Shown: piece by piece, positions 24,015-42,898 of the stretch | Layout: every line of letters starts with the position of its first letter | Numbering within the stretch: position 1 is the first letter of the stretch | Virus record (IMG/VR): IMGVR_UViG_3300050343_000214 | Coordinates: 41,802-105,801 of that record | Length of the DNA: 64,000 nt | DNA from: a virus | Reading direction: 5' to 3' (one strand) | Program-made: the position numbers and the translations under genes | Notes under the pieces: generated by a model | Databases searched by the model: none | Told to the model about the DNA's origin: nothing | What the model saw: only the letters and a program-made list of their open reading frames with translations

Positions 24015-24444
24015 TGTTCAGTTCCTGAATTAGAGATGGTATATCTGTAATAGATGACAAGTTAATATTGTCACCTAACAACCTTTTGTATTCTTTTGTC
24101 TTTGAGCTATCCATCGAGATAGCTTTAAATGAATTATGTTTGATTAACAACAATCCTAAGTCTACTGGCTCATAATCTATCATATATATTGGATTGATAT
24201 TAGATGGTATGCTAGCCAATTGAATAATTTTTTGCAAAGAAAATGCTAATACGATACCCCTGTAGCTCCAGAGGTTGCTAGAGTCAATCATTGGTATGTT
24301 TAACGACTTAGACGCATCGGTAATTCTATCATGTATAATACATACATCAAATTCCTGCCCCGTCTGTTCAAATATTTTATTACATATTTCTAATTGCTGT
24401 TTGTTGGTCAGGTCAGCGCAAATTCCCAAGTTATTTCTAGACAT
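24007..24444 (-). CDS. Hypothetical protein of the glycosylation cluster
   Basis: 145-aa ORF overlapping the downstream gene and closely following the upstream one. Confidence 0.45.
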   Translation of the reverse strand: MSRNNLGICADLTNKQQLEICNKIFEQTGQEFDVCIIHDRITDASKSLNIPMIDSSNLWSYRGIVLAFSLQKIIQLASIPSNINPIYMIDYEPVDLGLLLIKHNSFKAISMDSSKTKEYKRLLGDNINLSSITDIPSLIQELNNG

Positions 24445-24452
24445 TATTTTAC

Positions 24453-25334
24453 CTATATTTTCTGTGTAACGTCGTGCAGTTTTCCAACATTCGAGAACAG
24501 GGTTTTAATTCTATTCTTAGGTGAGTGTTTTGCTAATATTACTTCTCTCATTGCCTTAGTGTCATACTTTTCTTTCTTATCGTAATCTATGTTAATCTCC
24601 GTTTTGAGTAACTTAGACAGTGCGGAATTTACATTAGCTAATGCATCTTTATCTTCTACATCTAGGTAGACTTGATTACCAAAATACAATGCGTTCCAAA
24701 AAACTTCTGGTATGTTTTGGTGATCTATATTTCTAAAAACAATATTCTTATAATTTACAAACATTTTTGCGGACACGAAGTTGTTAGTATATGCATCGGC
24801 CCCTGATGTTTTGTCTGTGTTGAAAGTGTTTAAAAAGTGACAACTTCCCTTGTATTCTTTTTTGTCTGCCGCCCTTTCTATAATAACTGCTGTGTCAATA
24901 TCAAATTTTTTGGGATGTATATCTATATTCGTGTCCGCACAATTAGGTATGTTTACATAAGGATGCCCAAAGTCAATATTCTTGTGGGCAAGGTTTGAAC
25001 TAAACACTAGTGCGCATTCTAATTTATTTTCTTTTATTTCGCCCTTGAGAAAACTTCCCACCATCTTAGCCTCTTCGTGAGTTATATAATCAATATTTAA
25101 TATGTGCTTTACTTTAGTTTTAGACTCATGATTATACGCAACGATGTTCTCTATTTCTGCTCCCACATTAATGATTGAGTAGTCTGGCTGAAACTCGTCG
25201 TAAACAAGAAATATATCATTAGCGTTCGGGAATAAGATAGATTGACAATCATCTATAGAATTCAAGAACTTATGAAAGTATAGGGGTTGTGTTAAAACAG
25301 TAGAACTGTAGTTCATTATAGAAAATTTTGTCAT
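24453..25334 (-). CDS. Hypothetical protein, possibly a divergent GT-B-fold protein
   Basis: 293-aa ORF in the GT cluster. C-terminal 'MREVILAKHSPKNRIKTL' resembles GT-B C-termini. No catalytic E-x7-E motif. Confidence 0.4.
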   Translation of the reverse strand: MTKFSIMNYSSTVLTQPLYFHKFLNSIDDCQSILFPNANDIFLVYDEFQPDYSIINVGAEIENIVAYNHESKTKVKHILNIDYITHEEAKMVGSFLKGEIKENKLECALVFSSNLAHKNIDFGHPYVNIPNCADTNIDIHPKKFDIDTAVIIERAADKKEYKGSCHFLNTFNTDKTSGADAYTNNFVSAKMFVNYKNIVFRNIDHQNIPEVFWNALYFGNQVYLDVEDKDALANVNSALSKLLKTEINIDYDKKEKYDTKAMREVILAKHSPKNRIKTLFSNVGKLHDVTQKI

Positions 25335-26067
25335 TTGTTGTCCTGACCTTTGGTTAAATTTATTTTCTTAACAGCCTTATTGTCTTCCACTGGTTTAATA
25401 GCTATTTTTTTATGGGACACTAGAGTGTTTACTATTTCATACAAAACTTTGTTTTTATAGTCATTAGATGTCACTAGTTTTCTGAATTCATTAGCTGGAG
25501 AGCCGTTATGTATATAAAATATTTCACACCACTTACAATCTATTGCGCCGTAACAAATATACTCAATAGACATGTTCTTTCCATCTACGTTTACGCCTAT
25601 ATCTAAATTTGTACCACTACTTCTAGACACCATCGTTTCGCATTGTTTTAGTGGCATTTGTTTTAAACTGTTTTTGTCAAAAGATACACCGCCATTAATT
25701 ACTAATATATTATCATTACTCGTGTTGTTAACCGCTATTCTTAAGGATTCGCATAGCCCAGTATCTTCATAGCTTGTGTATTCTCCACGCATCTTATATT
25801 TATATGTTTATATTTAGTAGACACATAAGATTGTATTTTTTGAGCTTCGTATCCTGAGCTAATAATTATCTCTACATTTTCAAATGCTTCTCTTATACAT
25901 TCGATATGATGGTCTATAATTTTTTTGTTCTTCCTTATGTCTATCAGTGCAATGCTGCCTAAAGACTTCATGCGTGTAATGAAGCTATGGTATATCAGGA
26001 TCACGGTAACTAAGCCTTGAGTAGTCTTAGTTTTTCTTGTAGATGTTACATACTTGTAGGAGGTCAT
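25331..26067 (-). CDS. Sugar/choline-phosphate nucleotidyltransferase-like protein (one frameshift)
   Basis: Fragments join as 'VILI...TRMKSLGSIALI...IIDHHI...IIISSGY...VEN..YEDTGLCESL...ILVINGG', the NTP-transferase/LicC-like pattern, with a degenerate Gly-rich loop. Confidence 0.6.
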
Positions 26068-26477
26068 GATTTTGTGACTACTATAGTATAAGTCTCCTCT
26101 TCCAACGATGATGATAAAATTGTCATACCACACCCTCTCAATATGTTCATTGTCATATCAAACCTGTGTAGATTCTTTTTTCCTAAAATGAAAGAATTAA
26201 AGTCTATGTTTTTCTTTCTTTCAAATGTAGCCTTGCACAATGAGGTTAGCTCTGTGTCTGAAAAGACTGCTTGTCCACCTTTTCTAAGTTTAGTTGCGAC
26301 ATACGCAATTGTTTCTTGCATTTTATTGGGTTCTACATAGCATAAAACATGGTCTATAATAAACTGTTCTGCGCTATGGTTGGGTATGGTCTTTACTTCC
26401 AAGTTGTCTACATCTACATGAGTGTAGTTATTAAGTCTTTTGTGTTGCGTGTCTTTGTTGATTAGTTGACATTTCAT
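26064..26477 (-). CDS. Truncated or degenerate class I methyltransferase-like protein
   Basis: 'DHVLCYV...KLRKGGQAVF' matches the C-terminal half of SAM-dependent methyltransferase folds. No motif I. Confidence 0.45.
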   Translation of the reverse strand: MKCQLINKDTQHKRLNNYTHVDVDNLEVKTIPNHSAEQFIIDHVLCYVEPNKMQETIAYVATKLRKGGQAVFSDTELTSLCKATFERKKNIDFNSFILGKKNLHRFDMTMNILRGCGMTILSSSLEEETYTIVVTKS

Positions 26478-27460
26478 ATTATATCCTTTACGTCTTTAAA
26501 TACTTGATTCCACCTATCAATAAACAAATTCTCAGAAAACATATTGATAATTGTTTTTCTAGCTTCTTCACCTAATTTGCGCGCTTGATCTGGATTGTCT
26601 AATAGTGTTCTTATATATCCTTTCAATTCTTCAGCGTCGTTAGATACGAATCCATTAACCCCATTTTTAATTACTTCCGGTATCATACATGTCGCAGAAG
26701 ACACTACTGCACAACCGCAAGACATTGCTTCTAAGAGAGACATTGGTATTGGGCTATCGTTGGTTGTGTTCAAATACACAGAGTGCTTGTTATACTCATC
26801 TACTAATTCTTCTGTAGATTTAGCTGCTGTAGAAAGTCCCTCAGTGTCTCCCTTTAACGTAGTCTCAAATTCTTTGGTAATTTCTTTCCATAGAGTAAAA
26901 TTTAAGCAGTAATCTCTGTTTATAAAATCATTTGCTATAGTCAAAACCTCATTAACTCTTTTTTCTTTTCTGTCGCAGAATGTTATAGAATCAATTCCGT
27001 GATTGATTACTATTGAGGGATGTGGTGAATTCCAAGCTTTCTTTGATGTTTCAGATATATAGACATTAATATTCCCAACCATATTATTAATTTGTTGTAT
27101 GTGTTGTTTATTAAAGTTGGAGGTTGGCATGATATGATCCGATACTACGATAGGCAGACCCAGCCTGTCGTTAATCTTAAGCGCTATATTATACTGACTG
27201 ATTTTACTATGCACTAGTATCAAATCAAAATCTATGTAACTTGGGAAATTATTAGAATTTACTATATTATAATTTTCTGGAACTACTGTTTGCTCACTGT
27301 TCCAAGTTTTACCGCCTGAAACTTCTAATGAATAAAAGTTATGTCCAGTTTTGCACAGCTGAGTTTCATATCTCTCATGAGTCGGAAACGTTAGTATGTT
27401 TAATGGTTTTGTTTCGTCGTTACACTGATGTATAATTTTTCTGACTTTACTTATGCTCAT
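26474..27460 (-). CDS. Glycosyltransferase, GT4 family
   Basis: 'SPIPMSLLEAMSCGCAVVSS...IPEVIKNGVNGF' signature. Confidence 0.85.
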   Translation of the reverse strand: MSISKVRKIIHQCNDETKPLNILTFPTHERYETQLCKTGHNFYSLEVSGGKTWNSEQTVVPENYNIVNSNNFPSYIDFDLILVHSKISQYNIALKINDRLGLPIVVSDHIMPTSNFNKQHIQQINNMVGNINVYISETSKKAWNSPHPSIVINHGIDSITFCDRKEKRVNEVLTIANDFINRDYCLNFTLWKEITKEFETTLKGDTEGLSTAAKSTEELVDEYNKHSVYLNTTNDSPIPMSLLEAMSCGCAVVSSATCMIPEVIKNGVNGFVSNDAEELKGYIRTLLDNPDQARKLGEEARKTIINMFSENLFIDRWNQVFKDVKDII

Positions 27461-28573
27461 TTTAGCAATAACTCCTTCATCTTAGCGCCTACCGTTTTGT
27501 GGCTAAAATTTTGCCCCCTCTTCAGTCCTTCGACCTTGGCTTTTAAGGGGTGTGTATAGTAAGACCTCATAGCATCTATGGCTTGCCGTTCACTTGGTAC
27601 AGCCCAAGATTCCTTGCCCGTGTATATGTTACTTAACGCCGCCCCTCTATTGTTGCACGGTACAAAAACAACATCTATCAAAGTTCCAGTATCTTTGTTG
27701 TATGGGTCTATAAACTCTTTAGGGCCAGCAAAGTTGGTACATATAGGGTGATTGCCCATACACATCGCATCAAAAGCTGGTATAGACCAAGCCTCTCCGT
27801 GAGATAGGCCAACAAAACAATCGCATGTTTTATGCAAAGATAGTATCTCTTTGTCATCCAGATGATCTGCTACAATAATAACTTTGGCGTACAATGAATC
27901 GTCGCTATATATATTTAGTTTGTTTTTTACATCATCTGCTATTTGCTTAATTTCTTTGTAGACGTATTCTTTATCCTGACTTATAGACCCTACTTTTAAG
28001 ACTAAGCAAACATTTTCATTATTAGTGAATGCGCTATAATAAGCTCTCAGTGTGCCTTCTATATTCTTGCGAGTAGTCAAATCGGCAATCGTGTAAAATT
28101 TGTAAGTCCCACTTATGTTATGGGCAGAAAAATCAAAATCCTTAATATCAGATTGGTAAGAATCAATATCAAAAGCGTGTGGTATAACATTTACATTATT
28201 TAGGCCACACTTGTTTAATTCTAACAGGTTGTCTTGACATGGAACCCATACGTCAGACATGAGTTGATAGTTTGAAATCCAAGGATGGCACTGTAGGTCT
28301 TTAGTTTCTAAAACCGTATAGCCAATATTTTTTCTTGAATTTGCTTGTGCCAATATACATGATGGGAAGTATGTGCTGTATGCAATAGTCCACACCTTTT
28401 GTGTCGCCAGTTTCTAAATATTGCAATCGTTCTGGCACATCTGACTTTCTTGAGATTGCTATATTTCTGCAAACGACATCCACGCCCACGCTATCTAAAG
28501 CTAATATCAAATCCTGAGCTGCTTTAGCCCACCCTGTACCTTCTCTATAGTGACCTAAATATAACACTTTCAT
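27457..28573 (-). CDS. Glycosyltransferase, GT4 family (one frameshift near 28.33 kb)
   Basis: N-terminal 'MKVLYLGHYREGTGWAKAA' joins to 'RKNIEG...SHGEAWSIPAFDAMCMG'. Confidence 0.8.
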
Positions 28574-30252
28574 AGTTTAAATTTTTCCCGTCTAACTTGT
28601 TCCCAGATATTGATGATTTTTCTTTTCTCTTTACATTCTTCATACGCGCTTTCAATCGTAACTTTATTGTGTTCTATTTTTCGCCCCATAGAGACTGCTG
28701 AATCATCTTCGTTAAAATAAGACCCAATAATCTGTGATGTTTGATAGCCATAGTTTAAACTCTCTAGTAAATCTGCATAGAAAAAAGAATTTATTTTTTC
28801 AGGCTGATGCAAGACTTCTGCTACAAGCCACTTGGCAATAACATCTAAGGGCTGTTGTTTTATTTCTTCTTGGAATTCTAATGGTTTTTTAATATCTGGG
28901 GCAGAAAACCATGTTTCTTGTTCTGGAATAATTTCTAAACTATCAAAAGCTTCTTCCCATTTTGCTCCACTTTTTTCCCACGTAAACTCTTTTAAGAAAT
29001 TATTACGAATGTCTTTAGATGCTTTCTCTCGTTCGCTTGTTGTTTTATTAAAAAATTCTAAAAATATTTGACATGCATGTTCGTTGTCTGGAACAGCTCT
29101 TTCGCAACCCGTTTCCATTTCTTTGTATAGAGCTTTAGGATTGATTGCAAATCCATCAAGTTGTTTAATAACAGATTCCATTGCTGAGTATTTTATGGAC
29201 GCAACGGGAACGCCACATGCGGCAGCTTCTACTTGCGGCAGTCCAAATCCTTCTGAATTAGCGTATTGTACGTACAGGTCAAACATATTCATAATCTCAG
29301 ACAATTCTTCGTAACCTAAACCTTGTTTAACGCTAGCCATACGCGCATTGTATTTACCAGTATACGGAGAAGTTGTAGTGGAGCCTTTAAAGGTGGAGAC
29401 AAAAGGCTTGAACGTATCGGCGCAAACGTATGTGAACAATACTTTAGAAATAATATTGTTTTCATGCAAAAGCTCTGGTATATTCCATCCAGCGTCTGGA
29501 AAACATGTGTGACAATATAGCATATGTTTTTCTGGATCTTCTACAGATTCAAGAAATTTACTATATGCTTTAAACAAGTCTGGATATAGCTTCCTTCTTT
29601 GATTCCTCATTACAGTGCCAATTATTTTTGTGTTTTTATCTATACCATATTTAACCTTTAGCTCTTCTTTATTTTTTGGTTTATATTCTGGGTGCGCAGA
29701 AGGAGGTGCGCTTCCTATGTAGTTTATCTTCCCTCCAGATTGTTCGTTGAGTACATCACCCGACCAATCAGAGTAACTTAGGCACACATCTGTTCTAGAA
29801 AATGTGTCTATCCATTCCCTAGCTTGAGGATATGCGTCTACCGTGGGCATTAAAACCCATTTAAAGAATTTCCTGTATGGAGATTTGTCTATAAAATCAA
29901 TCATCCAAAAGTCTCTAATATCACAAACTATGTCGGGCTTGAAATTTAGACATGTGTTTTCAAAAGCAAATCCACCAAACTGAGCCGTAGCGTTAGCCTT
30001 ATACTTATTTATTCTTTCTTGATCATTAGTATTTGGAATTACACCGTAATACTTCCAAGGCGTTTCTGTTGCCCGTGGGTCATCGTTAGTACCATAAGCG
30101 CCTAATTCAGCTATTTCGTATTTACCTGTGCCATGAAGATATCTCAATATTTCTCTGGAGTATGTTGCATACCCCGTATGTAAGAAAGTTGATTCTGTGC
30201 AAAATAATATACGTTTTTTTCTCATCAATAATCTGCCTCTTCTTCTCCACAA
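28570..30252 (-). CDS. Glycosyltransferase, GT4 family (~550 aa)
   Basis: 'TGYATY', 'RNQRRKLY', 'SEGFGLPQVEAAACGVP'. The true start is probably MRKKRIL. Confidence 0.85.
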   Translation of the reverse strand: MWRRRGRLLMRKKRILFCTESTFLHTGYATYSREILRYLHGTGKYEIAELGAYGTNDDPRATETPWKYYGVIPNTNDQERINKYKANATAQFGGFAFENTCLNFKPDIVCDIRDFWMIDFIDKSPYRKFFKWVLMPTVDAYPQAREWIDTFSRTDVCLSYSDWSGDVLNEQSGGKINYIGSAPPSAHPEYKPKNKEELKVKYGIDKNTKIIGTVMRNQRRKLYPDLFKAYSKFLESVEDPEKHMLYCHTCFPDAGWNIPELLHENNIISKVLFTYVCADTFKPFVSTFKGSTTTSPYTGKYNARMASVKQGLGYEELSEIMNMFDLYVQYANSEGFGLPQVEAAACGVPVASIKYSAMESVIKQLDGFAINPKALYKEMETGCERAVPDNEHACQIFLEFFNKTTSEREKASKDIRNNFLKEFTWEKSGAKWEEAFDSLEIIPEQETWFSAPDIKKPLEFQEEIKQQPLDVIAKWLVAEVLHQPEKINSFFYADLLESLNYGYQTSQIIGSYFNEDDSAVSMGRKIEHNKVTIESAYEECKEKRKIINIWEQVRREKFKL

Positions 30253-30542
30253 ATATCAAATTCGTTTACTCTAAAAACGATCTCTTCCGTGTCTCTATTT
30301 TCATGTTTAGCTGATGATTGTATAGTAATTTTCGTACCCTTGGTAGCCAGCCGCTCAATGATTTCAGCTCCAGTATGCCAAGCCTCGCAGTTAAGATATG
30401 TTGGTATACGAGCTTTTTCCCCGGTACTCTTTGTTTTGCGATAACTATAGACAACGATAGTAAATTCTGCCTTTACAACGTTGCCCACAACAAATGTGTG
30501 GGGTTTGTCTACAAGATACCCAGTAAAACAACAATTGTTCAT
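30225..30542 (-). CDS. ssb: Single-stranded DNA-binding protein
   Basis: SSB OB-fold pattern 'MNNCCFTGYLVDKP...TYLNCEAW...KGTKITI', short acidic tail EEEADY, RBS AGGAG. Confidence 0.8.
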   Translation of the reverse strand: MNNCCFTGYLVDKPHTFVVGNVVKAEFTIVVYSYRKTKSTGEKARIPTYLNCEAWHTGAEIIERLATKGTKITIQSSAKHENRDTEEIVFRVNEFDICGEEEADY

Positions 30543-30560
30543 TTTGTCTCCTATCTTAGT

Positions 30561-30589
30561 ATATTAGCTTGTACTTTTAAAAAATACAA
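30561..30589 (-). promoter_or_regulatory. Possible sigma70-type promoter upstream of ssb
   Basis: Minus strand TTGTAT-17 nt-TAATAT in the short dnaE-C/ssb intergenic gap. Confidence 0.3.
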
Positions 30590-30591
30590 CT

Positions 30592-32151
30592 TTATGTTTC
30601 AAAAATTTTATTTACAATAAACGATGTGTCATTCTTATTAACTTGTCCGCAAAATACAAGATTGTTACCCTCGTATAATATATATTTGTATTTATTCTTA
30701 ACTTTGGGGAATATTATTACACTGTCTAGGATAGATGTATCATCTTCTATTGTTAGAAATGCCATCATTTCCCCTTTAGAATTGCCCTTTGTAATCTTGT
30801 ATTCAGATAGTCTTTGTATGTTTGCCACAACGCATAGGTTTTTACCCTTTTTGCCATTGACTATTTCCTTGCATGTGGTGTCTGCGGCAGACTTGTCAGC
30901 TACATCAACTCTAGTTAAAGTAACGGGACAGCCTAGAAATCTAGTTTCTTGATCAATAACCCAGCCCGGATCGTCATCTAGGCTATACGGTGGGTCAATA
31001 AGAAGTTGAATTTCATTTTCTATTACTTGTTGTCTGCTTACCCTAGATGTACCCCCGCCATTTTTTTTGGTGGGCGCTAGAGATTTCAATGCTTCTAAGA
31101 GACTATCCCAAGACTTATTTTTATAGTTTGTGTCCATCCACGAAACTTCGCCTTTAGTTAGAACTCGAAAGATCTCATAGTCATACAGGGCTTGATTCCT
31201 CGAAACTTTAGACCCAAAGTCTCTAAAAAATCCTATTGATGCCAAAGCCTTGAAAGATGTTGAGCTAATTTTTGTGCTAAATTTGAGCAGTATCTCCAAC
31301 CAATCAAACTTCTGTATCTTCTTACCAGATTCTTTTTCACACTGCTTGACTGCTTGAAATACTTTATCTCCACTTACGCCTGATAAGGATTTAACATTTT
31401 TAATACCAAAATATATCTTATTTCTCTTACTATTAAAGTCTAAGTCAAAATTTGCAAGGCTAGGAGTTCTTGTTTCAATATCAAACAACTTTGCTTCTGA
31501 TACTAATTCGTATACTTCTTGTTGAGGATCTTGTTTTTCATTGGCGTAAAATAGGTATGCTAGAAAAAATTCATTAGTATTATGGGCTTTTTGGTATGCG
31601 CTCCAGTAGGAACACACTGCGTAAGATACGCTGTGAGATTTATTAAATGCATATCGAGCAGAGGCTTGAATCCAACCAAAGATTTCTTCTGCCTCTTCTT
31701 TGTTGACCATTCCTACTTTCTTAGCTCCCTTAATAAACATTGTTTTTACTTTAGCCATTAAGTCAGCTTTCTTTTTACCAATAGCCTTGCGTAGCCCGTC
31801 TGCTTCTTCTAGATTAAATCCAGCAATCTTTTGCGCAATACGCATAGATTGCTCTTGATATACTAACACTCCGTATGTAGGCAAAAGAATTTCTTCTAGT
31901 GATTCATGTAGATATGTAACCTCTTCACGACCGTGCTTACGGTCAATGAAGTGTTGTGTCATAGATTTTCCATCTACGTATGCCTTTAAACATCCGGGCC
32001 TAATGATAGCGATTAGGGCAGATAGTTCTTCGATATTGTTAGGGGCTAACTTTTTCGACCAAGACTTACCCAGATTACTTTCTAATTGAAAGACACCCTT
32101 TGTTTTGCCTTCTGCAAACAGTTCCCAAGTTAGTTTATCGTCGTAATTCAT
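30592..32151 (-). CDS. dnaE: DNA polymerase III alpha, C-terminal half (fingers, HhH, OB fold)
   Basis: GVFQLES, IIRPG, TYGVLVYQEQ, LRKAIGKKK, YAFNKSH, 'IYFGIKNVKSL', 'KGEMMAFLTIEDDT'. Has its own ATG and no intein-C sequence. Confidence 0.92.
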   Translation of the reverse strand: MNYDDKLTWELFAEGKTKGVFQLESNLGKSWSKKLAPNNIEELSALIAIIRPGCLKAYVDGKSMTQHFIDRKHGREEVTYLHESLEEILLPTYGVLVYQEQSMRIAQKIAGFNLEEADGLRKAIGKKKADLMAKVKTMFIKGAKKVGMVNKEEAEEIFGWIQASARYAFNKSHSVSYAVCSYWSAYQKAHNTNEFFLAYLFYANEKQDPQQEVYELVSEAKLFDIETRTPSLANFDLDFNSKRNKIYFGIKNVKSLSGVSGDKVFQAVKQCEKESGKKIQKFDWLEILLKFSTKISSTSFKALASIGFFRDFGSKVSRNQALYDYEIFRVLTKGEVSWMDTNYKNKSWDSLLEALKSLAPTKKNGGGTSRVSRQQVIENEIQLLIDPPYSLDDDPGWVIDQETRFLGCPVTLTRVDVADKSAADTTCKEIVNGKKGKNLCVVANIQRLSEYKITKGNSKGEMMAFLTIEDDTSILDSVIIFPKVKNKYKYILYEGNNLVFCGQVNKNDTSFIVNKIFET

Positions 32152-32818
32152 ATGAAGCTTTTTTACTCTCTATAACTTTACTCAAATTTTTGTATTTTTC
32201 AACTAAGCACTTTTGTAGAGGTTGATTACTAGTGCTAATACTACAGTCGTGATAAAGGAATGATGAACTGTCACCATGATTAAATGTGTCGCGTGGAAAA
32301 ACCTCGGTTATATCTCTTACTGGTTGTAGCTCTTTTAAAGTTTTTTGTATCAATACTTGATCTACTGTCGTAAAATTGTCACTGTTAGCCGTAGCTATAA
32401 TGTATTTAAAAAAATTCTTGGAGGCATAAGAGTTCTTTATTATAGCAGATCCAGCGTTGATATTCCAATATGAATTCTCAGAACAACTCTCCGCAGTACA
32501 CCAAAGAATATCCTTATTAGACATCTTAGTGATACATCTCATATCAAATCCAAAATTACATATGGCTATATCTGTGTCCATAGCAAAGAAATAATCTACG
32601 TCCGGTCTTTCTTCTAATAACTTTAAAAGTATTATCCACTTTGTATAGTATCCTTTAGTATGATCCCCACCGTGTTGTGCTACCATGTCGTCATTGTTAT
32701 AGACTTTATACTCAATATCAAACCTGCTAAAATAGTGCTTGTTGTGATTATAAGTTAACTTGTTGATATCGTAAAAGTTTTGATCATGATTAGAGAATGC
32801 AAGTATTTTACTTGACAT
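32135..32818 (-). CDS. GT-A fold glycosyltransferase (GT34/GT77-like)
   Basis: 'KWIIL...DYFFAMDTDIAI' DxD motif, 'INAGSAII', 'DQVLI'. Confidence 0.7.
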   Translation of the reverse strand: MSSKILAFSNHDQNFYDINKLTYNHNKHYFSRFDIEYKVYNNDDMVAQHGGDHTKGYYTKWIILLKLLEERPDVDYFFAMDTDIAICNFGFDMRCITKMSNKDILWCTAESCSENSYWNINAGSAIIKNSYASKNFFKYIIATANSDNFTTVDQVLIQKTLKELQPVRDITEVFPRDTFNHGDSSSFLYHDCSISTSNQPLQKCLVEKYKNLSKVIESKKASYELRR

Positions 32819-33488
32819 ACAATCCCCCGTTGGCGAATGCTTTATCTAGTTCAATTTCTTGGTAAACTGCTCGATGAGTTTTTAGTAGCTTTATAAATAT
32901 ATTAGCAGTATCTTTGACATCCTGCAACGCATCGTGAGCATTTTCGGAACTTAATCCCATGCGCTCTCTCAAGCTATCCATGCTTATGGATCTAATGCTA
33001 GGATCTCCCTCTGTCCACATGTGCATATTATCCATAACGTCACACTTGTGAATTTTGCTGAACATTTTTTGCTGCTGCCTCGCGTCGTCGTAAGGTCCGT
33101 ATTCTTTACATAGCCTATTAATGATAATCATATCAAAGCCAATGATGTTAAAACCTACGGGGATGGGATTAAAGAAAGGATCTTTTTTCCAATTATATTT
33201 GTCTACAAAGGTGCAAAACTTTCTCCATACTGATTTTAAGGTTGGAGCCTTTGCTAAATCATCTCTATTTTTTCCAGTAACTTTGAGCGCCCCGTCTTCG
33301 ATTGGATCTAAACCTGCGGCAATAGCGGCATCGTCGCTAAGAATAGGTCTAATCTCACTGTTAAAAGTTCCCTTCATAGACAAGTTTCTACCATCCAGCG
33401 CTAAGGCAGCGATTTGAGTAGGTTGTGTTTTATGAGGGTTACGACTTCCTGTTTCAAAGTCAAATACGATATAGTCTCTGTTAGCCAT
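32808..33488 (-). CDS. dnaQ: DEDDh 3'-5' exonuclease (DNA pol III epsilon-like)
   Basis: ExoI VFDFETGS, ExoII GFNIIGFD, ExoIII AHDALQDV. Confidence 0.88.
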   Translation of the reverse strand: MANRDYIVFDFETGSRNPHKTQPTQIAALALDGRNLSMKGTFNSEIRPILSDDAAIAAGLDPIEDGALKVTGKNRDDLAKAPTLKSVWRKFCTFVDKYNWKKDPFFNPIPVGFNIIGFDMIIINRLCKEYGPYDDARQQQKMFSKIHKCDVMDNMHMWTEGDPSIRSISMDSLRERMGLSSENAHDALQDVKDTANIFIKLLKTHRAVYQEIELDKAFANGGLYVK

Positions 33489-33490
33489 AG

Positions 33491-34180
33491 TTAGTCCTTC
33501 TTTTCTATTCTTTTAGTAAAAAGGGAGTCGCCAGAAATTCCTTCAAACTGATATTCCCTTGCTTGTTCGTGTAATCCGTATTCATTCAAAAACTCTGCAA
33601 TCTTTTCTAAGCTCTGTTCTCCATCGTACATAATGTATTTTGTTGACCATTCAAAAACCGTAGCCTTTACTGTGGTGATTAAATTCTTACACCCTAAGAA
33701 CGCATGATATTCAGCACCTTGAATGTCCATAAAAATTGCATCTATTGATGGTATATTATATTTCTTACAGAAGCTGTATAGTGAAGTTGTTTTAACCTTT
33801 ACTTCTTCGTGTATGTCATTAACCTTAAAAATACTTTTCATACCTACTCCCGGCTTCAATATAGAACCCTGTCCAGTGTTTTGTAGGTTTTTACCAATCA
33901 TGGTTTCTTCGTCTTTGATACTTTCTGTTGGAAAATATTTGTAGAAACTAATTTCCCCATCCACCGCGCTTATTGCTTTGTGGTAAACGCTGACGTTGGG
34001 ATTATCCTCAAACTTGTCTTTGATGATTTGACAATTAAACGCATCAGCTTCAAATGCATAAATTTTAGCATTAGGCCAAGCGTCTAATATTTCTGGTATA
34101 TCATACCCCCTGTGGGCGCCAACTTCAAATATATGCTTTAAGTCAGGAAAACTTTCCTTAACCCTATTAATGAACAGCAT
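33491..34180 (-). CDS. FkbM-family SAM-dependent methyltransferase
   Basis: 'IFEVGAHRG', 'IYAFEAD', 'IDAIFMDIQGAEY'. Confidence 0.85.
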   Translation of the reverse strand: MLFINRVKESFPDLKHIFEVGAHRGYDIPEILDAWPNAKIYAFEADAFNCQIIKDKFEDNPNVSVYHKAISAVDGEISFYKYFPTESIKDEETMIGKNLQNTGQGSILKPGVGMKSIFKVNDIHEEVKVKTTSLYSFCKKYNIPSIDAIFMDIQGAEYHAFLGCKNLITTVKATVFEWSTKYIMYDGEQSLEKIAEFLNEYGLHEQAREYQFEGISGDSLFTKRIEKKD

Positions 34181-35738
34181 TTGTCAATTCCTTTATTTTC
34201 ATTAGTTTATCTAGGAGGTTAATTCCTAGAACATCAAACTTTACATGACCTAGTGCTTCTAAGTCTGTCATTTCTAAGCCTGCTATCTTTTCTATAGAAC
34301 CTTTCTGTTGTATCATTGGACATACGTTTTGCAATTTGTCTTTAGATATTACCACGCCAGCAGCGTGTTTGCCCTGTGTTTTAAATGTGCCTTCCATATC
34401 AATAGCTTGCTGGAAGTATTGCGCGTAGTCACCATCAAGCTTTCCTTCGTCTGTGATGTTGCAAAAATCTCTTAAGTCATCTGACCTGTTAATCAAAGAC
34501 CAACGTATTATAGATCGGTCTTCGTCGTCCATGTCTGCTAGCTGATCAGATATGTCTGCTTCATTTGGTATACTCTTTGTTATAGCATTCATCTCGCTAA
34601 AAGAACAAGCCTCATTTATCCTTAAAACTTCTTTTATTGCACTACGCCCCTGCAACCTTCCAAATGTTATCATCTGGCTAACATGATCTTTACCATAAGT
34701 TAGTTTAAGATAATCAATAACTTCATCACGCTTTTTGCCCGGAACGTCCATGTCAATATCTGGCAAGGAAACATGACCACCAGTGTTTCTTCCAGCGTTG
34801 TAAAACCTCTCAAACAATAAATCGTGTTCCACTGGATTGATCTTTGTTATACCAATAAGATATGAAATAAGACATCCAGCAGCAGAGCCTCTGCCGGGAC
34901 CAGCAATACAGCCCATGTCATCTTCTACATGCCTTATTATATCCTGAACAATCAAGAAGTAGCCAAATAGATCTGCGTCTTTAATAACTTGTAATTCTTT
35001 CCTGAATCTATCTCCATATATTTTTTGGGTATCTTTATCTTCGCCAACCAGAGGTTTTACAAATTTTGTATATCCCTTTCTAGCCATCTTAGTTAAGTAG
35101 TCTTCTTGAGACAACCCTTTAGGACATACAAATTTCGGAAGCATGGGTGGATTTAAAATTTCATAGTCTTCACAGGAATCATATATATATTCCAACTCTT
35201 TTGTTACTTTGCCTTTCGTAATACACTTGTTGTCCTTAGTAAAATATTCTAGCAAATCAGCATCTAGTTCTTTATTTCTAATTTTAGTATTTACTTTTGG
35301 TAATGTAGTCTTTAATGCAGAACAAAGTAGAACTCTGTGTAAAGCAGCTTGCTTACTATTGACATAATAAGATGGCTGAATGTTATCTTTTTCAGCTTGT
35401 AGGGCAATTAAGTTATTTCTACCTACTATTTCTTTTGCTATGTCTTTTGGCATGTTGCCATTTTCATCAGTAAAAGAAACCATCTGTATAAGGTCGTGCC
35501 ACCCGTCTTTATTCTTAGCATATATTGTAGTGTTATCAAAAGAACATCCAATGATAGGCTTGACTCCCACCTTCTTACACGCTTGATGAAATGACACTGC
35601 GCCAGAGATTGTCTTATAATCTGTGATGCCACACGCAGGATAATCATTGTCAGCACAAACCTTTGCAAGTTCATGCGGTTTTGAAAAGCCTTTTAGCAAA
35701 CTATAATGCGTAAAATTCTTCAATGGAAACCAGTTCAT
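34167..35738 (-). CDS. dnaE: DNA polymerase III alpha, N-terminal half (degenerate PHP, palm, thumb)
   Basis: THYSLLKG, GITDY, GPGRGSAAG, LLFERF, LPDIDMD, GKHAAGVVI, VKFDVLG, i.e. all three catalytic Asp. Stops 17 aa after KFDVLG with no intein-N sequence. Confidence 0.93.
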   Translation of the reverse strand: MNWFPLKNFTHYSLLKGFSKPHELAKVCADNDYPACGITDYKTISGAVSFHQACKKVGVKPIIGCSFDNTTIYAKNKDGWHDLIQMVSFTDENGNMPKDIAKEIVGRNNLIALQAEKDNIQPSYYVNSKQAALHRVLLCSALKTTLPKVNTKIRNKELDADLLEYFTKDNKCITKGKVTKELEYIYDSCEDYEILNPPMLPKFVCPKGLSQEDYLTKMARKGYTKFVKPLVGEDKDTQKIYGDRFRKELQVIKDADLFGYFLIVQDIIRHVEDDMGCIAGPGRGSAAGCLISYLIGITKINPVEHDLLFERFYNAGRNTGGHVSLPDIDMDVPGKKRDEVIDYLKLTYGKDHVSQMITFGRLQGRSAIKEVLRINEACSFSEMNAITKSIPNEADISDQLADMDDEDRSIIRWSLINRSDDLRDFCNITDEGKLDGDYAQYFQQAIDMEGTFKTQGKHAAGVVISKDKLQNVCPMIQQKGSIEKIAGLEMTDLEALGHVKFDVLGINLLDKLMKIKELTNAVH

Positions 35739-35763
35739 ATTGTTTATAATTTCCTTCTATCAA

Positions 35764-36280
35764 TTACAACTATCGTCTTTTTCCATACTTAAGATCTTCT
35801 AGATAGGCATATGGTTTGTGTTCCACAATGTTATGAAATATCTTCTGTTATCCAAACGCCTTCACTAGATAGTACCATATCGCTTATAGAAATCAAATAT
35901 TTTTGCTGTTTTACAGTATGAGAGCAATCTTCAATTACTAAATCAATGTCATTCTTATAATTGTTTTCTAACCACTGTTTAAACTCTAGAGCTTCTACGT
36001 CTCCATGATACACATCGTTGAGTAATGTGCTACAAAATGTTTCTTTTGATTTTACAAATTCTTGGTAAGCTGGCTCAACATTCTCAAAACTTTTGATATC
36101 TAATATCAGCACCTATATGAAAATTACCAATATTGTTATCAACCAAAAACTTGGTAAAACCGCAAATCATCTCAAGCACCTTTCGTACTTAGATTGCCAG
36201 AAGTTTTGGTAAAAGATTTTATAATTATGTTGATGGCAAAATTTGTCTGTATAGTCAGACGAACTGCTATAATTAATCAT
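35764..36280 (-). CDS. Class I SAM-dependent sugar O-methyltransferase-like protein (MycE/CmcI-like), heavily frameshifted
   Basis: N-terminal 'TDKF..HNY..FY' and 'DLVIEDCSH..KQQ...LSSEGVWITEDI' pieces. Several indels; boundaries approximate. Confidence 0.5.
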
Positions 36281-36325
36281 TTTCCTTTTGGCAAAGGTCT
36301 TTTAACTGGTTCGTTAGTAGACGGT

Positions 36326-37024
36326 CTAGGCTGTCCGGGTAATGTCAATGGGATTTTTTCTGGCTCTTTCATCTTCTAGTCCTTTTGTCAATTTGTATAG
36401 CTTGTCAATTACAATCTTTGAAGCATCGTTGTCTGACGGGTAGTGAACTCCCTGTAATATTCTAGCAAGTCCACAGTAATTAGACAACTCAAAAAATTTA
36501 TTTTTATGTTCTGGATACTGGTCGGCAAGTACATGAGCTGCTAATTCAGAATACATAGTATGACCACTAGGATACGAAGGAGTGTGATGTGTTTCCGTAA
36601 ACATAACCTTAATGTCAAGATTATAATATGGCGCAAGTTGTTCTGGTCTAGCCCTATTGTGATAATACTTTAGAGCGTACATATATTGCTCTATTATGTT
36701 ATAATAAGAGTTAAACTTATGTTGGGGAAAAGATAAAGCTTTAGTCTTTAAAAATTTACGGAATAGATCTAGTGGTTCTTTATCAACCGTGTACACTAAA
36801 TCAAGCTCTTGATATGTTCTTGAATTAGTTAGTCTGGATATTTGATTGAGTTCTCTTTCCGTGATGGCGCTACTGTTAGACGGCGGTGGAGGTACTATAT
36901 CCTTAATTGATATACCCAAAGTATATAACTCGTCGTGGTAATTGACTTTATTCGCCAGATAACCTATATTATCTAGATCTTGCTTTTTATCTATAATTTC
37001 TGCTACTTTATTTATTAAGCTCAT
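36326..37024 (-). CDS. PAP2-superfamily acid phosphatase / vanadium-haloperoxidase-like protein
   Basis: All three motifs present: K-x6-RP (KYYHNRARP), PSGH, and R-x5-H-x3-D (RILQGVHYPSD). Confidence 0.82.
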   Translation of the reverse strand: MSLINKVAEIIDKKQDLDNIGYLANKVNYHDELYTLGISIKDIVPPPPSNSSAITERELNQISRLTNSRTYQELDLVYTVDKEPLDLFRKFLKTKALSFPQHKFNSYYNIIEQYMYALKYYHNRARPEQLAPYYNLDIKVMFTETHHTPSYPSGHTMYSELAAHVLADQYPEHKNKFFELSNYCGLARILQGVHYPSDNDASKIVIDKLYKLTKGLEDERARKNPIDITRTA

Positions 37025-37229
37025 ATTCTCTCTCGGTGAATACTTTTTCTAATCTTTGTACTAATCTAGTGCCCGCTCTACGTCTAAAACATGGCAGTAA
37101 TCCATGTATACACAAGTATATTCCAGCTCTAATACATATGAAACCATGACCCACGGCAAACTTGAAGTGCTGCCAGTAGGTCATGTTGTTTTCATTTAGA
37201 TGCTCATTCCATTTTTTTCTAAGTGTCAT
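37008..37229 (-). CDS. Small conserved hypothetical protein (DUF6356-like)
   Basis: 'HLNENNMTYWQHFKFA...CIHGLLP' pattern. Likely start MTLRKKW. Confidence 0.5.
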   Translation of the reverse strand: MTLRKKWNEHLNENNMTYWQHFKFAVGHGFICIRAGIYLCIHGLLPCFRRRAGTRLVQRLEKVFTEREYELNK

Positions 37230-37230
37230 T

Positions 37231-37746
37231 TTACCAAGCCTTGCAGGACCAGTATCGAGCTTTCCAGCGTGGGCCGGGATTGTCACAATTGTGTCTTGCT
37301 CTAAAGTTTTTGCGTCTACCCGGATCGTTTTTCTTAATCTTCATGTTAGGATCACCAAAATTAACTTTGACTACATTGCCAGATCCGTTTTTGACATAAA
37401 CGCTTCTTTTCTTAGGACCATCAGGAGTTAAAAACGGTTTGCCTAACTTGACTTTACGCCCTTGGTATTCAGCCGCTTGAGTTTCTTCATTTTGTGCTTT
37501 TTTCCAAGCGTCTGGATCTGGCCTATCTTTGTCGCCCTTCTTGGCAGGCTTGTAGTTTTTCCCTTCTCTTTCCTTCTTCTTGCGAATATTTTCCCACAAA
37601 GAAGCAGCGTCATGTTCTTCTTCAGATTCGCCAAAGTCTTCATACTCTGCTTCTGCTGGAAGGTAGAAGTTTTCTTCTGTGAGTTCTTCTGTGAAACCAT
37701 ACGTGTCTGTGGTATAAGCTTCATCTGCCTGATTGATTCTAGACAT
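37231..37746 (-). CDS. Conserved phage protein: acidic N-terminus plus basic DUF6321-like domain
   Basis: 'AEYQGRKVKLGKPF...KVNFGDPNM...RRKNFRARHNC...ARYWSC'. Likely start MSRINQ after RBS AGGAG. Confidence 0.6.
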   Translation of the reverse strand: MSRINQADEAYTTDTYGFTEELTEENFYLPAEAEYEDFGESEEEHDAASLWENIRKKKEREGKNYKPAKKGDKDRPDPDAWKKAQNEETQAAEYQGRKVKLGKPFLTPDGPKKRSVYVKNGSGNVVKVNFGDPNMKIKKNDPGRRKNFRARHNCDNPGPRWKARYWSCKAW

Positions 37747-38632
37747 TTGTAGTCTCCTGTTTAAGATCTTGGGATTGTTGTTCGACTGCCTGTATAGCAT
37801 AATTCATCATAGGAATAAGCTTTTCAGGAGGTAGCCGTTGGGAAAAATTATTAAATATTTGTTCGATCATTTTGTCGTTAGGGTCTCTGGTTATTTCATA
37901 CCATCCTACAAAATAATTCCATATTCTGTCCTCTAATTTTAGAGGATATGCTACACCGTTAGGTCTAGAGAATCTATGCAGCCACTTAAATCCCGGTACA
38001 CACATAGCCTCTCCACCAGCCCGTCTAAATTTTTCGTGTATGTAGCCTTCTTCTCCACCAAAACCCCTAAACAGTTCATTGAACCCTAGCCAGTTCTTAG
38101 TTTCGCAAGAAAACACTCCAAGTCCATGCATGGGTATCTTAAAAGGCTTTCCGGCTTCAAGGCCAGCATCATCTTTAGCCCATTTGCCATACATGTCGCC
38201 TCCCCAAGCAGGTCTAAAATGAGTTGCGCAGCCTTTTAAATTGTCGTACATCATTGGGCCTTGAACAATATCTTTGCAGTCTGGTTTAGTTTCATAATAT
38301 TCTAATAGGCTTTCTAATGAACCTTGTGGGAACATCACATGGCAGTCCATAGAAACACAGTATTTGCCTGTTGCGTTTTGAAAAATTAAGTTTCTGTTTG
38401 CGGTAGTTTGTTTTTCTGTGTATGGTATAAGTTTGACTGAATCTTTCATCCATCCTGACACCAAGCCCTCTATGGCTTTTCCATGAGCGCTATTAGGGTT
38501 ATTGTCTATGACGATCAACTCCACATCACCACTTTTAACTAACTTATGATACATTTTCAATGACTGTAAAGAAAAATATACGCCATCAAAATCATCAAAG
38601 GTACACATTCCTATAGTTAATAATTTACTCAT
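37739..38632 (-). CDS. Glycosyltransferase, GT2-like
   Basis: 'LTIGM', 'LIVIDNN', 'ATGKYCVSMDCH', 'GFNELFRGFGGEE'. Confidence 0.78.
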   Translation of the reverse strand: MSKLLTIGMCTFDDFDGVYFSLQSLKMYHKLVKSGDVELIVIDNNPNSAHGKAIEGLVSGWMKDSVKLIPYTEKQTTANRNLIFQNATGKYCVSMDCHVMFPQGSLESLLEYYETKPDCKDIVQGPMMYDNLKGCATHFRPAWGGDMYGKWAKDDAGLEAGKPFKIPMHGLGVFSCETKNWLGFNELFRGFGGEEGYIHEKFRRAGGEAMCVPGFKWLHRFSRPNGVAYPLKLEDRIWNYFVGWYEITRDPNDKMIEQIFNNFSQRLPPEKLIPMMNYAIQAVEQQSQDLKQETTNV

Positions 38633-40418: not shown

Positions 40419-41447
40419 TAGATATGTGCCTTTCAAGTCAAGTAAGTATTTTACTTCTTTATGTCCTTTACGCTCATATCTCCAACGTCCTTATCTAGAA
40501 AGCTTAGGAAATGTAATCTTATACATTCTCGATAAAGACCTTTGTATTTTTATTCTTGCTTCTCTTCCTGCTTGATCGTTGTCTGTTATGACAACGAGAT
40601 GTGTAATTGGAAGCTTTTTAAGCTTTTCTATATGCTGTCTCGATATTGTCTTGCCGAATACGCTAACAGCATTTTTGACCCCCGCTTCGTACATTCTCCA
40701 CACATCGCCCTGACCTTCTAGAACATACATGGTATTAGTTTTACAGGCAGTTTTGATTGCCCTGTGAAAATTGTAGAAATAATTGTTCTTGTCAAATCCT
40801 TTTGGTGTAATTAAAAATTTAGGAGTTTTATATTCTTTAATGCTTCTACCAATAGCGCCTACAACTACATCTCCCACATCGTTATGTATAGGTATAATAG
40901 ATCTCTCATTCATTATACCGTTTTCTAAACAATCTCCCACTCCAAAATGCTTTAATGTTCTTTTGGAAAATCCTCTATTAGAGAAGTAGACTGACGGAAC
41001 TTCACAACTACACTCGCATTGTACTGGCATGTCGTTAACAGTTTTATTATTCTTTGTGAATATTTTATTTATAGATTCAATGTCTGTGGGTTCCGTTGGC
41101 TTGCTAGTCGTAGTAGCGTTGGAATTATAGTCAATATGTATATTTAATTCTTTTTTTATCCACCCTAATGCATCCTTGAATTCAGCGTCCTGACCGCTTC
41201 TAGCTGTTAACACGCCGCATATTAAACCGAACACATCATTTCTATGCTGCTCTTGACAATCCCTAGTCCAACACTTCCATATACCTTTTGATTTACAGAA
41301 AGAGAACGCTCTGGGGTTATCACTAGATTCATGAATAGGACATGTTGAATATATATTATCTCCAAAGTCCTCGAATTCTATACCAAGCTTTGTTAAGACT
41401 TTAGTTATATCGTTATTCAGATTCTGTTTCAGTGTCTGCAAGTTCAT
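40418..41447 (-). CDS. dnaG: DNA primase (CHC2 zinc finger + Toprim)
   Basis: 'CPIH...WKCWTRDC', 'VLEGQGDV', 'ITDNDQAG'. An indel near 40495 displaces the final KDVGD segment. Confidence 0.85.
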
Positions 41448-42898
41448 TTTTTAGCTTATCCATATCCTTTACTAAACCCGTGTCGCCCACTGGTTCGTTC
41501 TTGAATTCATTTCTAGTTCGTAGCTCTATTAACTTTGCATGTGCGCCTTGCATTTGCATGTTTATATAATCTCCATCATCCATGCCAGCTCCGTGTCTAG
41601 ATACAATGGGTACAAGCTTTCTGTTCCCTGCATTTGGACCGTCTTCCGCGACTTCTTCTGGTGATTTTGATTTGAAAATGCTAAACGAAGTGCAGAGCCA
41701 AATAAGCCTGTCAGAACCACTAACAGCATCTGTGCTTTCCTTAGTTATGCCATCACGATTTAATTGCACGAAGGATAGACAAGGTATGTCTAGTTTAACA
41801 CATAAATTATGTAATGATGTTATTTGAAATCCTAGCGCCTGATATTCCTGAACGTTGTTGGTTATAGACGAAGAGGACATGAGTTTCAGGTAATCATAAA
41901 TAATTACGCAGTCGTTGGTTTTATTTGATTCATCAGTCTTGACTTCCTGAGCCACCCACCTTCTAATAAGATTCAAAATATTTTCAAATGGTTTTCCAGC
42001 GACACTGATATAGCTGTAAGGTATATCTTCTAATTTGGCAACGGCTTCATTGACTTTATCATGCTTAGTATTATCTTCTGTAAATTTGCCGGTTGCAACC
42101 TCGTTGATAGGAACTCCGCTAATATTAGCTATAAGCCTATTGAGATGATCTTCTTTAGACATTTCAGTATCTAATACTAATACCTTTATTCCTTGTGATG
42201 CTACATTTAAAGCAACATTATCAGCAAATACTGATTTGCCAACTTTGGGTCTTGCAGATACAAGGTCAACGCATTTTCGTCTAAGACCACCCCCAATAGC
42301 TTCGTCATATCTAGTGAATCCCGTGGGTACACCAATGATATCACATTTGTTTTCTTCGAGAAATTTAACATAGTCTTCTATCCCCGTCTCCTATCTTTTC
42401 TGGGTTTTCCCCGCCATCATCTTCACGCAGGAAGTCAGTAACGGGTTCTTCTAAAATGTTTATGACTTCATCAATACTCTCAGAGCCATTGACTGCGCCT
42501 ACATCTTTATGTATCTTATTTGTAAGTTTTTGTATCTTACGTGCAAATTCAAATTTTTTCATTTGAACGGCAAAGCCCAAGGTGTTTTCAGGTGTGACAG
42601 GAAAATCATATAAGGACTTAATGTATTGTAACTCTTGTTCTGTCTTAAGTCTCTCTGACAATTTTAAGTGTTCGGCAGCAGACATGATAGTAACAATGTC
42701 GGGGTGTTGATCGTTACTTATTACATGTTCAATGCATCTATAGAGGGCTTTATTGTTTAAATTACCAAAGCTATCTACAGAAATAATATCGGACACAATA
42801 ACTTGTGCGTCTATTCCATACTGTAGCAAGCTAGCTAGCAAGGCTCGCTCTGATCCAATATCTAAAAGTTTTTCCATATCACCTTCCTGAGCATCCAT
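41413..42898 (-). CDS. dnaB: Replicative DNA helicase (one frameshift near 42.38 kb)
   Basis: N-terminal 'SERALLASLL' domain joins to 'PTGFTRYDEAIGGG...ARPKVGKS...DTEMS', 'IIYDYLKLM', 'FVQLNR'. Confidence 0.88.

Follow-up and report, generated by a model that had tools for sequence, protein, structure and literature searches.

The window analysed here, a 64,000-nucleotide stretch of DNA from an uncultured aquatic phage, encodes a C-family DNA polymerase (DnaE) in two genes about 2 kb apart, one for the palm and the other for the fingers, with a DEDDh exonuclease gene between them and no intein on either half detectable by profile search. To our knowledge, C-family replicases are described as single-chain enzymes, and the one textbook exception is stitched together by an intein. 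Judging from the genes, the two products (alphaN and alphaC) and the exonuclease are likely to form a functional, non-covalently assembled alphaN/epsilon/alphaC core.

Table 1. Genes of the split dnaE locus, listed in gene order from the N-half; positions refer to the window.
Product	Length (aa)	Positions	Strand	Content or status	Matches
dnaE N-half (alphaN, P0001)	523	34167-35738	minus	PHP, palm, thumb and first helix past the third-Asp strand	PF02811; PF07733; phrog_405
FkbM-family methyltransferase	229	33491-34180	minus	variable cargo, N-half/exonuclease junction	PF05050 (E 2.4e-14)
DEDDh 3'-5' exonuclease (RNase_T/DnaQ, epsilon-like)	226	32808-33488	minus	constant gene	PF00929 (E 6.5e-13); phrog_192
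Glycosyltransferase-like protein	227	32135-32818	minus	variable cargo, exonuclease/C-half junction	PF05637 (GT34; E 7.6e-5)
dnaE C-half (alphaC, P0002)	519	30592-32151	minus	fingers, putative HhH and OB	PF17657; phrog_405

The five genes of the locus (30592-35738) are all encoded on the same strand, with their ends overlapping or abutting (Table 1). By coordinates, the junctions counted from the N-half are a 14-nt overlap, a 2-nt gap, an 11-nt overlap and a 17-nt overlap, a layout that couples the genes translationally. An earlier note on this DNA had given the coordinates of both halves, which match ours exactly, and had described three intact, frameshift-free genes between them, which is borne out by their complete ORFs. 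Terminator-like sites showed no excess over the shuffled expectation, with none at the gene junctions on the coding strand, and an Rfam scan of 30000-36500 for group I/II introns and other RNA families returned only sub-threshold chance matches.

The upstream gene had been read as containing PHP, palm and thumb with all three catalytic aspartates, and profile searches confirm this. PF02811 matches residues 10-114 (E 1.8e-16), PF07733 is covered over its whole length (2-260/260, E 2.9e-67) and the aspartates are found in PDIDMD (D327, D329) and KFDVLG (D502), with a GRGS motif also there; the three residues and GRGS are invariant across 48 relatives. The metal-binding HxH motif of the PHP domain is intact in deeper clades, where it reads PLHLHTHYS, but degenerate (PLKNFTHYS) in the clade of the window. 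P0001 aligns to positions 244-615 of phrog_405, a family of full-length phage DnaE, and to E. coli alpha as far as residue 564 (630 in T. aquaticus), a stretch that takes in the D401/D403 and D555 motifs. The protein ends 18 residues past the KFDVLG motif, and its final residues vary freely among relatives, like true termini.

The downstream gene, whose product starts MNYDDKLTWELF..GVFQLES, holds the fingers as had been claimed (PF17657, E 1.1e-47, profile 26-165/166). P0002 aligns to E. coli alpha 591-857 and to positions 627-1068 of phrog_405, and its LRKAIGKK, YQEQ and FNKSH motifs are invariant in 39 relatives. Its HHH_6 match is under the Pfam cut-off (E 0.0057) and its OB region aligns weakly to E. 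coli alpha 1003-1060; in the relative L061 the corresponding matches are 2.5e-6 and 2.7e-5, and AF2 models of relatives have a C-terminal beta-barrel. A stand-alone C-half from the family is modelled with a confident fold by itself (pLDDT 94.1). Since both halves are intact, with full motif sets and under equally strong constraint (dN/dS 0.053 for the N-half and 0.047 for the C-half, not near 1 as under relaxed selection), they support a working split replicase.

Where does the break fall? It maps to about 576/591 of E. coli alpha, the palm/fingers border, in agreement with the earlier reading. The further proposal of a short missing linker holds against E. coli, where residues 577-590 (~14 residues) have no counterpart in either half, but not against the closest fused relative, P0134, which reads straight through the junction and to which the split termini abut with nothing missing. 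In the AF2 model of P0134 (pLDDT 92.7, pTM 0.86), which superimposes on Pol III alpha of T. aquaticus, M. tuberculosis and E. coli with TM 0.6-0.8, the cut lies in the 9-residue loop 595-603, between helices 582-594 and 604-612.

The locus had been described as intein-free, and every test agrees. Intein/Hint HMMs gave no match at E<=0.01 on either half, and as a positive control the same HMMs picked up inteins in L034 (contiguous) and L061 (split, accompanied by a homing endonuclease). Nor is there room for IntN/IntC, as P0001 extends 12 residues beyond the part that aligns to E. coli alpha and P0002 aligns from its residue 3. With no intein to rejoin the halves, the enzyme is most likely a non-covalent assembly. 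The abundance of splicing elements among the relatives, which includes, besides L034 and L061, intein-sized inserts in 61 of 150 C-half representatives, speaks for another possibility, namely that the halves are rejoined into a single chain by a mechanism unrecognisable from sequence, be it an unconventional intron, trans-splicing, ribosomal bypass or a cryptic ligation domain. We consider this very improbable, given the missing intein match and spare residues, the lack of an Rfam intron, the DNA between the halves that ranges from 665 nt to ~6.8 kb and contains different genes in different lineages, and the N-half stop that overlaps the next start codon, behind last residues that are free to vary.

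Of 132 related viral contigs (N-half identity ~35-99%), 129 have the gene order N-half, DEDDh exonuclease, C-half, and when the C-half was compared with its 150 nearest cluster representatives at 50% identity, 144 had the same split. The split arrangement, shared by a very large family of relatives, is widespread and old, and not peculiar to one genome. It could be suspected of being an assembly artefact or a decaying pseudogene, as the window's contig is not free of private frameshifts, at least one being present in its DnaB-like helicase. That frameshift is common to no relative, whereas the DnaE break is common to 129 independent contigs from many samples, one of them 99% identical and from another record, which excludes chance or a mis-join; together with full-length ORFs and dN/dS of ~0.05 this makes an artefact or pseudogene exceedingly improbable. 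Among cultured phages, tblastn gave at most ~32% identity over most of either half, and the bacterial species genomes scanned contain only ordinary bacterial DnaE, at <=41% identity.

The one gene that is constant between the halves is the exonuclease, found there in 129 of the 132 loci and matching phrog_192 'DNA polymerase exonuclease subunit' (E 5e-27), while the methyltransferase and glycosyltransferase-like genes are recent, variable cargo. Exonuclease residues D10, E12, D119, H185 and D190 are invariant among relatives, its dN/dS is 0.040, and in most relatives its start is overlapped by the N-half stop by 8-11 nt. The methyltransferase is absent from most relatives, even from L003, the N-half of which is 99% identical, and FkbM/TylF methyltransferases turn up again in other loci, at one junction or the other. 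The glycosyltransferase-like protein, with a weak PF05637 match at the cut-off, has an 81%-identical counterpart in L003 and a distant one (31%) in L015, and is missing from most relatives. Cargo in relatives includes homing-type endonucleases, UDG and other genes; endonucleases lie between the halves in a few of them (Endonuclease_7 in L077, HNH_3 in L042), and a profile search of the window's intervening ORFs found no homing endonuclease. Gene gain and loss is visibly concentrated at the junctions, a hot spot in these phages. A fusion of N-half, exonuclease and C-half by read-through or frameshifting was also considered and rejected: the junctions are in different phases from locus to locus and are interrupted by cargo genes.

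The 105.8-kb record, which is ~68% complete, yielded no PolA or PolB domain, so that the split DnaE is the only polymerase seen; large ORFs in the rest of the record have only tail and structural matches in PHROGs. A second polymerase could lie outside the record, and in jumbo phages a split 'minimal' Pol III alpha exists beside PolB (PMC7824862). Both points would fit a scenario in which the halves no longer cooperate and have separate roles, with alphaN for example a stand-alone nucleotidyltransferase or phosphoesterase, and replication is performed by a host or an undetected phage polymerase. We regard it as highly unlikely, since the halves always co-occur on one strand in a replication module, beside primase, helicase and SSB, the active-site motifs of both fingers and palm are invariant, constraint on the two halves is equally strong and fused relatives exist in the same clade.

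How would the split replicase work then? AlphaN would supply PHP, palm, thumb, the three catalytic aspartates and the GS motif, and alphaC the fingers, which have the basic conserved motif LRKAIGKK, together with the putative HhH and OB. We propose that the two proteins re-associate non-covalently via the native palm/fingers interface, and that nucleotides are incorporated at a composite site formed by both. The DEDDh exonuclease would be a separate proofreader, most likely docking on the PHP domain by analogy with E. coli epsilon; with it the complex probably has three parts and is not a simple heterodimer. In the presumed ancestral layout the three genes overlapped or abutted, and translational coupling should therefore supply the three proteins together and in balance, possibly for co-translational assembly; at both junctions cargo would later have been inserted. 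A Cys-rich N-terminal tail of ~32 aa (CxC...C) is found on most C-halves in the wider family and might help assembly. It is absent from the window's clade, so assembly here would have to rest on the native interface alone.

Fused relatives are P0134, P0220 and L061. In trees rooted on Salmonella and Bacillus-phage DnaE the fused clade is nested inside the split forms, and a single split with fused forms as sister is not rejected by the AU test (p 0.22). One could join these observations into a broader reading, in which the split with its nested exonuclease would be ancestral in a very large aquatic phage clade and the alphaN/epsilon/alphaC core obligate, the Cys-rich tail would be a dedicated, possibly zinc-dependent docking module, the single-chain forms would be re-fusions that followed a move of the exonuclease gene upstream, and the junctions would be preferred docking sites for cargo. 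Taken jointly we hold this to be rather unlikely.

The nearest precedents are the split PolB of T4-like and PhiKZ phages, the 'minimal' split Pol III alpha of jumbo phages and the intein-split DnaE. Single-chain DnaE with separate epsilon (E. coli 2HNH, 5FKU; T. aquaticus 2HPI, 3E0D) has the same domain order (PHP, palm, thumb, fingers and, putative in the window, HhH and OB), the same catalytic motifs and a separate DEDDh proofreader, at ~25-38% identity in aligned stretches, but is one polypeptide, whereas here there are two, whose genes enclose that of the exonuclease. The split DnaE of cyanobacteria (cited in PMC2677866 and PMC3919608) is also a two-gene DnaE; its genes are at distant loci, with intein halves on both pieces, which are ligated to one chain. 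It breaks between the Y and the C of YCFNKSH, while in the window there is no intein and this site is intact, as the earlier note had pointed out, with YAFNKSH contiguous at P0002 residues 167-173. In the 'fractured genes' of marine metagenomes, DnaE among them, a split intein cuts the gene and a free-standing homing endonuclease sits between the pieces (Dassa et al., 2009, PMC2677866). As in our locus, an aquatic DnaE of phage-like type is in pieces that a gene separates, but the window has no intein halves and its constant gene is the proofreading exonuclease. L061 has the exact 'fractured gene' arrangement, further downstream in its DnaE.

Among split PolBs, gp43A/gp43B are known from Aeromonas phages 25 and 44RR, and the phage 25 pair co-purifies and is active (PMC2988022, citing Petrov et al., 2010), while PhiKZ DNAP N and C form a non-covalent split B-family polymerase (PMC13648687). 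The pieces of these split PolBs co-purify and are active or are structurally resolved, and a mobile endonuclease may be encoded between them. Both these and, as predicted, the split DnaE are phage replicative polymerases in two genes without splicing; the PolBs differ in family (B versus C) and cut sites, and have no proofreader gene between the halves. The intein-free 'minimal' Pol III alpha of group 2.2 jumbo phages, predicted from sequence as two stand-alone proteins (Iyer et al., 2021, PMC7824862), is a catalytic core that lacks PHP, the fingers extension, OB and other domains, encoded by distant genes and accompanying PolB, the presumed main replicase, in contrast to the full-size DnaE of the window, cut once and the sole polymerase seen. 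[quoted passage not shown] These are a possible parallel to the Cys-rich tail of most C-halves, although the enzyme is different and the window's clade has no added tails. The 'genes in pieces' class typically, though not by strict definition, has a mobile endonuclease at the break, which the window lacks; contiguous relatives exist in this class and the cut removes nothing essential, as is also true here (P0134, P0220, L061).

In a literature search of incomplete coverage we found no description of a DnaE split between palm and fingers with a nested exonuclease. The locus offers a natural, abundant and strongly conserved version of the enzyme with palm and fingers on separate proteins, and hence a system for asking whether the covalent link between them matters for fidelity, processivity and the open/closed transition, and for studying how a replicase core is assembled from pieces. 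There is a consequence for annotation, too: related protein clusters carry only the automatic names 'DNA polymerase III subunit alpha' or 'PHP domain-containing protein', and thousands of such ~520-aa metagenomic proteins are halves of a single enzyme, not fragments or errors, and would be misread by pipelines in which fragmented DnaE genes are discarded or 'repaired'.

A candidate second two-gene form, which may be a true split, a frameshift or an intein, is annotated in cultured marine phages. In the Cellulophaga phages phi13:1, phiST and phi19:2 (Cbastvirus) DnaE is annotated as two abutting CDS with nothing between them, and the break falls just before PDIDxD, between the positions of P0001 residues 317 and 324.

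The split dnaE of the earlier note, with three genes lying between its halves, could be recovered in full: all five ORFs were located and their domains assigned by profile. They lie on the minus strand in unbroken succession with no free space between them, the junctions from N-half to C-half being a 14-nt overlap, a 2-nt gap, an 11-nt overlap and a 17-nt overlap. P0001 (the N-half, alphaN) contains a complete Pol III alpha palm/thumb (PF07733, profile 2-260 of 260, E 2.9e-67) and P0002 (the C-half, alphaC) the fingers (PF17657, profile 26-165 of 166, E 1.1e-47); on the full-length phage DnaE family phrog_405 they span 244-615 and 627-1068, respectively. The surrounding replication module encodes SSB, a PD-(D/E)XK nuclease, dNMP kinase, DnaG-like primase and DnaB-like helicase, and no second DnaE, PolA, PolB or beta clamp was found in the 105.8-kb IMG/VR source record (estimated 68% complete). 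Glycosyltransferase, methyltransferase and PAP2 genes are mixed among the replication genes (24007-38632), and the variable cargo genes at the DnaE junctions have the same functional flavour.

Features of the window and of related loci (L-numbers) on viral contigs
Feature	Position	Strand	Length	Assignment
P0001, dnaE N-half	34167-35738	minus	523 aa	PHP domain + PF07733
PHP motif I, P0001 residues 5-13	35700-35738			PLKNFTHYS
FkbM methyltransferase	33491-34180	minus	229 aa	
DnaQ/RNase T-type exonuclease	32808-33488	minus	226 aa	phrog_192 'DNA polymerase exonuclease subunit'
Exonuclease C-terminal tail	32808-32880			..LDKAFA..
GT34-like protein	32135-32818	minus	227 aa	weak match
P0002, dnaE C-half	30592-32151	minus	519 aa	PF17657 fingers + weak HhH match
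C-half motif, P0002 ~378-386	30980-31020			IQLLI
GT1	28570-30252			
GT2	37739-38632			
PAP2	36326-37024			
DnaB-like helicase, whole	41413-42922	minus		frameshifted
DnaB-like N-terminal domain frame	42365-42922	minus		
DnaB-like ATPase frame	41413-42390	minus		Walker A motif
Small conserved protein (~38 more loci)	L084:4537-4827, L091:5092-5313, L128:4755-4973			
Intein-bearing C-half	L034:10821-13181			
Fractured dnaE	L061:6001-10687			
Interrupted dnaE	L083:4289-6228			
Distant N-half	L090 (G001:C1:50351-58100)			
Cellulophaga phage phi13:1 DnaE	L149:3581-7181			

Mapping on E. coli and Taq alpha places the break at the palm/fingers border, in agreement with the earlier note. Residue 511 of P0001, which ends at 523, aligns with E. 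coli alpha 564 and residue 514 with Taq 630, while residue 3 of P0002 aligns with E. coli alpha 591 and Taq 650; the strand of the third catalytic Asp and the following helix are retained by the N-half. From these end points about 14 E. coli linker residues have no counterpart, so the claim that a short linker is missing holds against E. coli but not against P0134, a single-chain metagenomic representative (1102 aa, ~46-48% identity to each half), which is continuous across the junction and to which the N-half's C-terminal tail and the C-half's opening residues align with nothing missing. The AlphaFold2 model of P0134 (pLDDT 92.7, pTM 0.86; TM-scores of 0.6-0.8 against Taq, M. tuberculosis and E. 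coli Pol III alpha) shows the third-Asp strand (573-581), a helix (582-594), a loop (595-603) and another helix (604-612), and the natural cut maps to this loop. A stand-alone C-half of the family is predicted to fold confidently by itself (pLDDT 94.1). The final residues of the N-half vary freely among relatives, the pattern that a genuine C-terminus would show.

The split is real and conserved. Three viral-contig scans yielded 143 loci, 132 of them spanning both junction ends, and a search for the same break and its intervening genes found it in 129 of the 132, the exonuclease gene separating the halves each time; in L061 and L062 the polymerase is fused at the break site and the exonuclease lies directly upstream, and L145 is a distant fused form. 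Across the split loci, N-half identity to the window's falls from 99% to ~35-45%. In the most frequent arrangement the N-half stop and exonuclease start share 8-11 nt, and the C-half comes within a few bases of the exonuclease. N-half stop and C-half start lie 665-3502 nt apart (median 1003, 129 split loci). In the L090 record this distance is ~6.8 kb, the N-half lying on the same strand as the exonuclease/C-half pair, ~6 kb upstream, so the N-half/exonuclease junction can hold far larger cargo than the window's. Of the C-half's 150 nearest cluster representatives at 50% identity, 144 consist of the C-half alone (83 plain, 61 with intein-sized inserts) and 5 include N-half residues; the best 120 N-half homologues are all ~520 aa, mostly from marine datasets, on contigs of at most 166 kb. 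That the split is an artefact or a pseudogene is disfavoured, even though a broken gene does occur nearby: the two DnaB-like frames differ and overlap by 26 nt, while these parts share one frame in 49 related loci, including L003 (N-half 99% identical to the window's). That frameshift stems from an indel specific to this contig (assembly error or fresh mutation), and being private it looks unlike the DnaE break, which is common to relatives.

Nor is selection relaxed towards a dN/dS near 1, since Nei-Gojobori medians over unsaturated pairs are 0.053 (N-half), 0.040 (exonuclease) and 0.047 (C-half). Invariant among relatives are D327, D329, D502 and GRGS in the N-half, LRKAIGKK, YQEQ and FNKSH in the C-half, and D10, E12, D119, H185 and D190 in the exonuclease. 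The split polymerase is functional-looking, and we disfavour separate functions for the halves; the simplest reading is that alphaN and alphaC form a functional polymerase, whose binding and activity we infer. The two would be held together via the native palm/fingers interface, proofreading would fall to the exonuclease as a distinct protein, much as epsilon accompanies alpha in the E. coli core, and expression would be from a single coupled operon. The window's clade has a degenerate PHP motif I, whereas deeper split clades (L097, L109 and others) show an intact HxH there (PLHLHTHYS) and carry ~110 aa extra in the PHP region; the motifs suggest that the window's clade lost PHP metal binding and retained the separate exonuclease. 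The exonuclease tail has an invariant FA. The IQLLI of the C-half sits at the position of the E. coli alpha internal clamp-binding motif, and from this resemblance one may speculate that a host clamp is used, no beta-clamp gene having been found in the incomplete record.

Rejoining of the halves by hidden splicing is likewise disfavoured. Inteins do occur in this family: the same intein/Hint HMMs detect in the L034 C-half, following IIRPG, a contiguous intein with HNH endonuclease (Intein_splicing E 1e-12), and L061 is a 'fractured gene' as in Dassa et al. 2009 (PMC2677866), with a DnaE ORF ending in a Hint fragment, a NUMOD3/DUF559 (Vsr-like) endonuclease ORF and a C-terminal HhH+OB piece. 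As the earlier note had maintained, however, neither window half carries one: P0001 and P0002 gave no match at E<=0.01, alignments leave no space at their ends for IntN (~100 aa) or IntC (~35 aa), and a permissive Rfam scan found no intron in 30000-36500. The split intein and Vsr-like/NUMOD3 endonuclease ORF of L061 and L062 are located after the fingers, and the in-frame C-half inserts of L075 and L142 are counted among relatives' inteins at other sites.

In trees of the concatenated halves, with DnaE of Salmonella and of Bacillus phage Eoghan as root, the fused P0134, P0220 and L061 form one clade nested within split forms, which would mean re-fusion; a tree grouping all split forms together is not rejected by the AU test (p 0.22).

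Bacterial surveys list the intein-split cyanobacterial DnaE as the only natural split and regard other fragments as probable errors (PMC3919608), and marine 'fractured' DnaE genes rely on split inteins (PMC2677866). Family B has known non-covalent split polymerases, among them gp43A/B of Aeromonas phage 25, which co-purify and are active (PMC2988022); Aeh1 NrdA is a parallel case whose assembly requires new tails (PMC3045599). For jumbo phages that encode a PolB as well, Iyer et al. predicted a 'minimal' Pol III alpha split into two genes far apart (PMC7824862). In cultured Cellulophaga phages the DnaE annotation consists of two CDS that abut, with the cut before PDIDxD; this Cbastvirus cut falls between P0001 residues 317 and 324, so phage DnaE genes appear broken at several sites. 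L083 is interrupted at the same place. In the literature covered, which is incomplete, we met no account of a full-size DnaE divided between palm and fingers with the proofreader gene separating its halves. The window's DnaE joins the naturally split, presumably non-covalently assembled replicases.

The cargo is variable. L003 lacks the methyltransferase, whose insertion or deletion must therefore be very recent. FkbM and TylF methyltransferases occur at both junctions, and other cargo includes a UDG-family protein (8 loci), Endonuclease VII-like, HNH and NaeI-like proteins, YopX, an HTH protein and an 849-aa RCC1-repeat protein. A small conserved protein (72-96 aa; LSIC.INDFY..YQVHS..LYE.I.EAL.KF.E.RRK.R) lies between N-half and exonuclease in 41 loci; Pfam gives no match for it, the window's clade does without it, and a role as accessory subunit of the split polymerase is possible. 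A CxC motif within the first 25 residues of 117/150 C-half representatives (alignments A2, A4) belongs to a ~32-aa N-terminal extension that neither the window's clade nor the fused relatives have. In P0128, a C-half family representative (residues 1-35), C8, G9 and C10 are nearly invariant and C32 invariant, and AF2 predicts an ordered beta-hairpin (pLDDT 84-91), which may be a metal-binding docking tail.
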